DNA of 64,000 bases from assembly GCA_964016885.1 (NCBI GenBank), contig OZ024760.1, positions 14,880,001 to 14,944,000 on the forward strand. Direction: 5' to 3'. Source of the DNA: Eledone cirrhosa (lineage: Eukaryota). Below, piece by piece: positions 55,667-56,497 of the stretch. The translations under genes were made by a program, and so were the position numbers. How positions within the stretch are numbered: position 1 is the first letter of the stretch; each line of letters begins with the position of its first letter. The notes beneath the pieces were generated by a model. The model had not been told where the DNA came from, ran no database searches, and worked only from the letters and a program-made list of their open reading frames with translations.

Positions 55667-55725
<59 letters not shown>

Positions 55726-55875
55726 ATACTTTGGAGGGTCATGTTGCCAATAAGAAACACACGCACCAGTTGCTTTCACTTCAATTTATTATATAATTTA
55801 TAAATTTACAAATTTATAAATTTATAAATTTCTGGTTGGTTGGTTGGTTCCACAACCAGATAGTTGTTTATATAT

Positions 55876-55920
55876 AGTCATAGTCCTTTCGTCACACACT
55901 CTGTGACCTCTTCAGTGACT
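55876..55920 (-). ncRNA. Minimal type I hammerhead ribozyme motif (inverted twin)
   Basis: Exact reverse complement of 56093-56137. Confidence 0.75.
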
Positions 55921-55966
55921 GGGGATTCCTTTCTTTGTTTCTGTGCCTCTCCTTTGTTCTGTCCTA

Positions 55967-56024
55967 CGCCATTTTATTTCTGTGTGTGTGTTGTGTGCTC
56001 AGTTTGCGCATGCGCCACATCCGG
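55967..56024. promoter_or_regulatory. YY1 + NRF1 + ETS motif cluster
   Basis: CGCCATTTT at 55967, TGCGCATGCGC at 56005, ACATCCGG at 56017. Confidence 0.5.
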
Positions 56025-56092
56025 GTGTCTGTGTGTGTTTATGTTCATTTATCTATCAAAGGAGAGGTACAGAAACAAAGAAAGGAATCCCC

Positions 56093-56137
56093 AGTCACTG
56101 AAGAGGTCACAGAGTGTGTGACGAAAGGACTATGACT
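56093..56137 (+). ncRNA. Minimal type I hammerhead ribozyme motif
   Basis: agtca-CTGAAGA-g-gtcaca[gagtg]tgtgac-GAAA-ggac-TA-tgact; 5-bp stem I, 6-bp stem II. Confidence 0.75.
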
Positions 56138-56497
56138 ATATATAAACAACTATCTGGTTGTGGAACCAACCAACCAACCAGAAATGTATAAATTTATTAT
56201 AAATTTATTATAATAAATTGAAGTGAAAGCAACTGGTGCGTGTGTTTCTTATTGGCAACATGACCCTCCCAAAGTATAACAATATCGGTTTCAACACACG
56301 ATTTCAGATAAAGAATATTGCTAAACAAATTCAGAAACGATAATATATATAGTTGTTATATAGTAAGGTGCATTATTGGTTGTGTAAGATGGTCCAATAA
56401 CTTTATGTTAGCAATATTAAGTTCTCCACGCTTTTGTATATCTCCAATTCCATTCAAGGAACAGCTAGATGATGTAAAACGGAGTATAAGTATCAAA

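Follow-up and report, generated by a model that had tools for sequence, protein, structure and literature searches.

We consider it likely that the foldback at 55718-56340, in the 64,000-nt stretch of Eledone cirrhosa DNA analysed here (the window), is a high-copy Penelope-like retroelement (PLE) inserted head to head and 5'-truncated into a TA repeat, and that its arms were made when two reverse transcriptases (RTs), each primed from one end of the cut target, began copying a single element RNA at sites 55 nt apart. That judgement covers the identity of the insertion and the two-primer copying of one RNA jointly. Truncated PLE insertions in head-to-head arrangement number in the thousands, and the foldback is one of them, not a special two-way cassette. 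The locus itself is ordinary repeat debris, and the element is a new family member of a known PLE type.

The inverted arms described by the initial annotation were borne out. The left arm (55718-55956, minus strand) and the right arm (56057-56285, plus strand) are 93.75% identical over 240 alignment columns, and each contains the identical, outward-facing minimal type I hammerhead motif noted before, at 55876-55920 (-; CTGAAGA at 55915, N17 at 55881) and at 56093-56137 (+; CTGAAGA at 56098, N17 at 56132), both being candidate ribozymes. To its left the foldback abuts a (TA)n microsatellite target at 55671-55717, and (AT)n abuts the family ends in nearly all copies shown. The left arm represents the 3' part of the pseudo-LTR (pLTR), that is, the 5'UTR with the hammerhead, the ATG (55742) and the first nine codons, and stops at the short 3' end. 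The spacer between the arms (55957-56056, -) is the further upstream pLTR sequence of this same arm (its 3'UTR/promoter part), and the 5' truncation lies at 56056. The right arm is an inverted pLTR copy with a stronger 5' truncation; it begins 19 nt downstream of the start of the YY1 motif and has none of the three promoter-like motifs of the spacer. Two features had been overlooked: the first codons of the element's ORF close both arms (ATG 56260 on the plus strand), and a 55-nt tail corresponding to ORF codons 10-27 extends the right arm only, at 56286-56340 (+). In the window copy it is thus the longer arm that has the short end and the shorter arm that is tailed.

The parent was rebuilt by the genome-wide search with arm and spacer that the initial annotation had proposed. 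It is a Penelope-like element with a recovered unit of 4.07 kb, and arm plus spacer are its 3' pLTR, so the earlier assignment of the hammerheads to the Penelope-pLTR type was right. The query of spacer plus right arm returned 1,169 candidates, and in most of the 40 that were scored the spacer adjoins the opposite-strand arm, as at the left arm in the window. In the parent only one arm has the spacer immediately upstream of it, and this spacer begins 63 nt past the stop codon of an ORF encoding an RT and, at the C terminus, a GIY-YIG endonuclease (EN). Locus L042 holds the full pLTR-ORF-pLTR unit of 4,075 bp, with the ATG inside the arm sequence, and a pLTR-ORF-pLTR partial tandem is present at L042, L095 and L176. 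On the sense strand, the parent pLTR runs from the stop codon through the ETS-like, NRF1-like and YY1-like motifs to the hammerhead and the ATG.

The L042 ORF has the PLE-type RT motifs PTDKSG and YVDD. Its match to RVT_1 (E 1e-4) falls below the curated cut-off, as does that to the GIY-YIG family PF01541 (E 2e-4; 22.1 bits versus a cut-off of 22.6). The endonuclease motifs VYSIRC-x4-C...YIG, RINEH and LYQH are present, with the CCHH signature, and the linker CIDKKCITC before the EN has the CX2-5CxxC form of Nematis and Neptune. A single RT ORF, a C-terminal GIY-YIG domain, a pLTR, a hammerhead and an inverted truncated copy with a tail together place the parent among EN+ PLEs. It resembles the canonical C-terminal EN+ PLEs of the Nematis/Neptune type, as described in the available part of PMC8557442, in its one RT-then-GIY-YIG ORF, Zn linker and hammerhead pLTR, and in its 5' truncation, inverted 5'-truncated copy, one-end tail and (TA)n targets; it differs in its tail (55 nt versus 30-40 nt) and in having no recognised intron in the 5'UTR. 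The linker spacing, C-x4-CxxC-x7-C, is nearer to Nematis than to Neptune in Fig. S2 of that source (three Nematis rows, none molluscan), and this spacing alone suggests Nematis. The Naiad clade was rejected because it needs an N-terminal EN, whereas the parent EN is C-terminal with CCHH, and the Hydra clade because it needs a CxCX5C linker and no CCHH.

The best protein relative is an Octopus vulgaris protein with 66% identity; Penelope-like families are listed for O. vulgaris in PMC13282606, the available part of which makes no mention of hammerheads. A genome-wide search for a 31-nt motif of the arm gave 23,739 exact matches, against 0 for the reversed control, and a further 7,990 exact 3'-motif matches come from a sister family whose ORF is about 70% identical. 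The sister-family loci (L075-L094 and L238-L267) have the same ORF start, with their own tail and their own foldbacks. PLE-like ORFs are also nested near family copies, at L044:7448-9001 (-), L036:107-982 (+) and L032:3961-4548 (-); the first resembles, by eye, the Hydra-1_Obim rows in the accessible portion of the PMC8557442 supplement.

Among the first 100 motif matches on contig C1, 54 formed 27 adjacent outward-facing pairs within 6 kb, compared to one inward and two direct pairs. The truncation points of these foldbacks vary freely. Paired arms that were mapped ranged from 41 to 3,816 nt, and many consequently lack any ribozyme or promoter motif. With arm lengths of about 40 to 3,800 nt, the apparent cassette in the window is one draw of truncation points. 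The compact bidirectional cassette that had been proposed was not upheld, as its spacer belongs to the left arm only. Family copies have two possible end points, both ATAT sites: ORF nucleotide +26 or, after the 55-nt tail, +81. In either case (AT)n follows. An inverted 5'-truncated PLE copy, often with a tail at a single end and with microsatellite targets, appears in Fig. 2 of PMC8557442, in the part available. We rejected a MITE or Foldback DNA transposon, since arm lengths and junctions differ at each locus, the ends are asymmetric and there is no fixed TIR unit. A non-LTR retrozyme was likewise rejected; such elements share with the foldback a type I hammerhead and a short repeat related to PLE pLTRs, but in the accessible parts of PMC7229834 and bioRxiv 10.64898/2026.07.22.740005 they are direct tandem non-coding repeats, whereas the Eledone foldbacks are inverted, truncated fragments of an element that encodes RT-EN.

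Two regularities of the paired arms bear on how they form. In 25 of the 27 pairs (p 2e-6) a tail is present on one arm and absent from the other, and in the remaining two both arms have it. In 21 well-mapped pairs, the tail was on the shorter arm nine times, on the longer arm seven times, on one of two equal arms three times and on both arms twice. The second regularity concerns dense sense-strand A>G changes, which were found in 3 of 100 unbiased arms, at two loci; for T>C, G>A and C>T the number of flagged arms was 0. Among 57 loci, nine adjacent head-to-head pairs had at least 11 edits per arm, seven of the nine having been found via edited queries, and 87-100% of the edits were common to both arms. 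The shared edits, with the totals of the two arms in brackets, numbered 32 at L095 (34/32), 13 at L176 (13/15), 95 at L177 (97/102), 95 at L178 (95/95), 32 at L179 (32/32), 13 at L180 (13/15) and 26 at L203 (28/27), and the Jaccard index was 0.92 at both L270/L271 and L228/L230. Between loci, the median Jaccard index was 0.17 and the maximum 0.42 (281 comparisons, five same-locus ones being disregarded for the maximum), and each of the three edit patterns searched was private to its locus among 40 scored candidates. L184 and L185, with 4-7 edits, nearly all shared, were too lightly edited to enter the nine pairs. L182, L287 and L291 were not counted as discordant, their neighbours being non-adjacent, inward-facing or overlapping by 49 nt without edits. 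Private edits that are shared by both arms indicate a single template molecule. In 26 unedited pairs, rare variants were arm-private in 99 cases and shared in 7, which argues against later homogenisation of the arms.

We infer that the strand-specific A>G clusters are ADAR marks made on sense RNA before reverse transcription. The neighbour preference of the edits (5': G 0.17, T 0.19, C 0.19, A 0.30; 3': G 0.32, T 0.15) is weakly ADAR-like and weakly diagnostic. Read-through of a foldback is a candidate source of the antisense RNA needed for editing; the read-through hairpin of the window foldback is predicted by folding to be very stable (-410 kcal/mol). No report of ADAR-edited PLE copies was found in the open-access literature, to which the search was confined.

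At L176 (G000:C3:328617435-328623342), one inverted and two tandem pLTRs 4 kb apart have in common a private pattern of 13-14 edits, which also destroys the ribozyme core; this triple sharing suggests a circular RNA template or a repeated template jump. At L095 (G000:C1:2083700-2090100), edits in the inverted arm and the upstream pLTR span +1 to +144 of the YY1 motif, and the 3'-most pLTR has none, as a linear tandem RNA would give. The two tandem loci thus disagree on edits in the 3'-most pLTR, which is a point against the proposed reading. In both of them the first edits of the cluster lie at +1 of the YY1 motif, but not in L177 or L178. On balance, we think it moderately probable that ADAR-hyper-edited insertions are single-molecule barcodes, that their arms arose when one RNA was twin-primed at two adjacent sites, and that, in at least the L176 locus, a pLTR segment was copied three times by one of the two routes named.

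In the proposed mechanism, the endonuclease would cut both strands of (TA)n, and each target 3' end would prime at one ATAT site of one RNA, aided by ATAT microhomology. Both cDNAs would stop at variable points and would then be joined, leaving outward-facing arms. LINE-1 twin priming is similar in that both target ends prime on one RNA and an inversion results; there, the RNA is split into non-overlapping parts, whereas the primers of the Eledone element start 55 nt apart and sequence is for that reason copied twice. The available part of PMC11167929 describes, for Poseidon_Ac of Anolis in vitro, a pair of adjacent RT start sites, cleavage of both strands and a predicted dimer. As in that element, two RT start sites at the ORF start define the tail, the target is AT-rich, and a minimal hammerhead lies near the ATG. 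Unlike in Poseidon_Ac, the Eledone ATG is about 130 nt past the ribozyme motif and each of the two start sites has a terminal ATAT that matches the target; the Poseidon_Ac RT starts are not homologous to the cut DNA, microhomology being our proposal for the Eledone element. The genomic edits go beyond the in vitro system in adding single-molecule evidence. Two primings on one RNA fit the one-tail rule, the shared edits, the shorter-arm tails and the in vitro behaviour given in the accessible portion of PMC11167929.

Shared edits and one tail per pair are also expected if the cDNA snapped back, or if the second arm was copied from the first DNA product, with the tail left by a staggered endonuclease trim of hairpin DNA; the available text of PMC8557442 attributes the tail to EN-mediated resolution. 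We regard this as unlikely. Simple snap-back is excluded by tails on the shorter arm alone, as seen at the window locus, in the nine well-mapped pairs and at the edited loci L203 and L270/L271, and a staggered trim should give a fixed tail polarity, where 9 versus 7 was observed. Different RNAs might have served as templates for the two arms, which would have become alike by later gene conversion, a process that long palindromes can undergo. The excess of arm-private variants in unedited pairs and the agreement of all nine edited adjacent pairs across the whole overlap largely refute this possibility, which we hold to be highly improbable. Inverted duplications are also produced by long-read foldback chimeras, but the chance of such an assembly artefact is negligible here, given that the arms differ by indels and substitutions, 3' ends and flanks and that the pattern recurs under a fixed rule of one tail in 25 of 27 pairs.

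The nearest gene start to the foldback is that of an Src-like kinase on the minus strand (Met-Gly-Asn-Ile-Cys near 40738), which lies about 15.0 kb away, in agreement with the distance first given. A co-opted bidirectional promoter cassette, making two self-cleaving RNAs and perhaps acting on this kinase, has in its favour that promoter-like and hammerhead motifs are present, that the hammerhead is read in sense both ways, and that the leftward direction faces the kinase 15 kb off. We nonetheless judge it very unlikely: the layout is that of a random truncation product, one arm supplies all the motifs, the ETS-like motif is lost in the sister family, and folding predictions for the window's hammerhead variant give a misfolded monomer (MFE -12.0 versus -5.2 kcal/mol for the hammerhead fold). 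Divergent transcription from the foldback is geometrically possible. The window copy is likely inert debris, because its putative promoter points left into a 240-nt stub.

The three spacer motifs, which we take to be of YY1, NRF1 and ETS type, were found where the initial annotation had seen them, starting at 55967, 56005 and 56017 in plus-strand coordinates. They comprise a YY1-like AA[A/G]ATGGCG followed by TAG (55967-55975, -), an NRF1-like palindrome (56005-56015) and an ETS-like CCGGATGT (56017-56024, -). The YY1-like and NRF1-like motifs are unique within the window, and the spacer has a CpG observed/expected ratio of 0.80 (4 CpG) against 0.55 for the whole window, a modest difference. 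Conservation of the motifs, on which their reading as promoter elements had been made to depend, was upheld in part. The YY1-like 9-mer with its TAG is retained by the sister family and the NRF1 core is kept in 17 of 23 sister-family copies, but the ETS-like motif, present in 15 of 23 copies of the family studied here (family A), occurs in 0 of 23; one family A subfamily keeps half of the NRF1 palindrome. A YY1 motif followed by CTGANGA occurs 28,405 times in the genome versus 46 times for the control. The motifs are likely promoter elements, as first proposed, but not of bidirectional design, all three coming from the left arm.

Of 94 mapped 5' ends in family A, 12 fell at -15 to +5 of the YY1 motif, a bin picked after inspection of the data, compared to 0-6 in each of 21 other 21-nt bins. 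The corresponding stretch of the window (55970-55990, -) is the putative transcription start zone of the element. The pile-up did not recur in the sister family, where 1 of 30 ends fell in this bin; in that sample 7 of 30 arms extend past the sequence examined and three ends at -208 look like alignment stops in AT repeats. A YY1 site just downstream of the transcription start, in the orientation found here, is the pattern of human TATA-less and L1 promoters. From the sequence pattern, the YY1-like motif likely denotes a one-way start site belonging to the element itself, and the YY1 and NRF1 motifs likely form a one-way internal promoter, which agrees with the pLTR promoters cited in the available part of PMC8557442. 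In tandem copies, the pLTR promoter would drive the following ORF. At 55964-55972 (-), the YY1-like motif also presents an AUG in a strong Kozak context with GCG-UAG directly after it, and this Met-Ala-stop, kept in both families, may neutralise the upstream AUG. We found no report of YY1 in PLE promoters within the open-access literature searched.

In each hammerhead motif, stem I comprises 5 bp and stem II, which one extra G precedes, 6 bp; GAAA is present, and a 4-nt loop replaces stem III. The Rfam check that had been proposed did not recover the motif: no hammerhead reached the gathering score across the window, and the 70 weak matches at E<=10 over 55000-57500 were hairpin and low-complexity noise. 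This is unsurprising because the motifs lack helix III, and PLE hammerheads are usually minimal versions according to the available part of PMC6155905. In 100 unbiased arms, edited loci excluded, 11 core columns deviate in 7 of 768 positions, compared to 387 of 8,030 in the columns around them; position N7 is variable, and 72 of 74 have U or A at N17. Of the conservation and covariation anticipated earlier, the core is kept and stem II shows two compensatory pairs in the sister family, but stem I gives no evidence of covariation, being weak there (2 bp, then a mismatch). The core conservation indicates selection on the hammerhead in source elements. Folding z-scores of the ribozyme region (-0.78 and -1.58) were not significant, and a tandem dimer with a G-A stem III was rejected at just -1.7 kcal/mol (0 for the commoner variant). 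Copy 5' ends did not pile up at the predicted hammerhead cut site (2 of 94 in the bin). Eight of 94 ends in unbiased arms lay around stems I-II, +48 to +89 of YY1 and off the cut site, possibly by RT stalling at the hairpin. The PLE hammerhead in the accessible part of PMC11167929 was active only with protein and dispensable in vitro.

Elsewhere in the window, the exons of the Src-family kinase span 23922-40786 (-) and encode SH3, SH2 and kinase domains, and the foldback could lie in a 5' intron of this gene. Convergent with it are exons at 5020-7606 (+), presumably of a solute-carrier/triose-phosphate-transporter-like gene. Foldbacks of other repeat families occur at 56485-56874, 56920-57045, 21937-22159, 26308-26960 and 45847-46683, and the first includes CTGATGA, resembling a hammerhead core, at 56606 (-). 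Other minimal motifs of hammerhead type, short-stemmed and located at 29031 (-), 3048 (-) and 30619 (+), the first two nearly identical, probably represent another PLE family. Sequences at 34202-36478, 54022-54714 and 17849-18223, all on the minus strand, are taken to be broken RTE-like LINE fragments.

The main interest of these findings is the evidence, at the level of the family, that a single edited RNA was twin-primed. The formation of complex tandem and inverted PLE structures is named as an open task in the available part of PMC8557442, and the accessible portion of the in vitro work of PMC11167929 is silent on whether both arms share a template. The tail rule and the shared edits answer the shared-template question with nothing but genome sequence, and open it to direct testing. 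In addition, the family provides a candidate internal PLE promoter of the YY1/NRF1 type, and its A>G clusters would be RNA editing written into an animal genome via retrotransposition. With about 2 of 73 insertion events edited, hundreds of such barcodes are expected genome-wide; if the reading is true, the edited copies suffice to map PLE reverse transcription in vivo.
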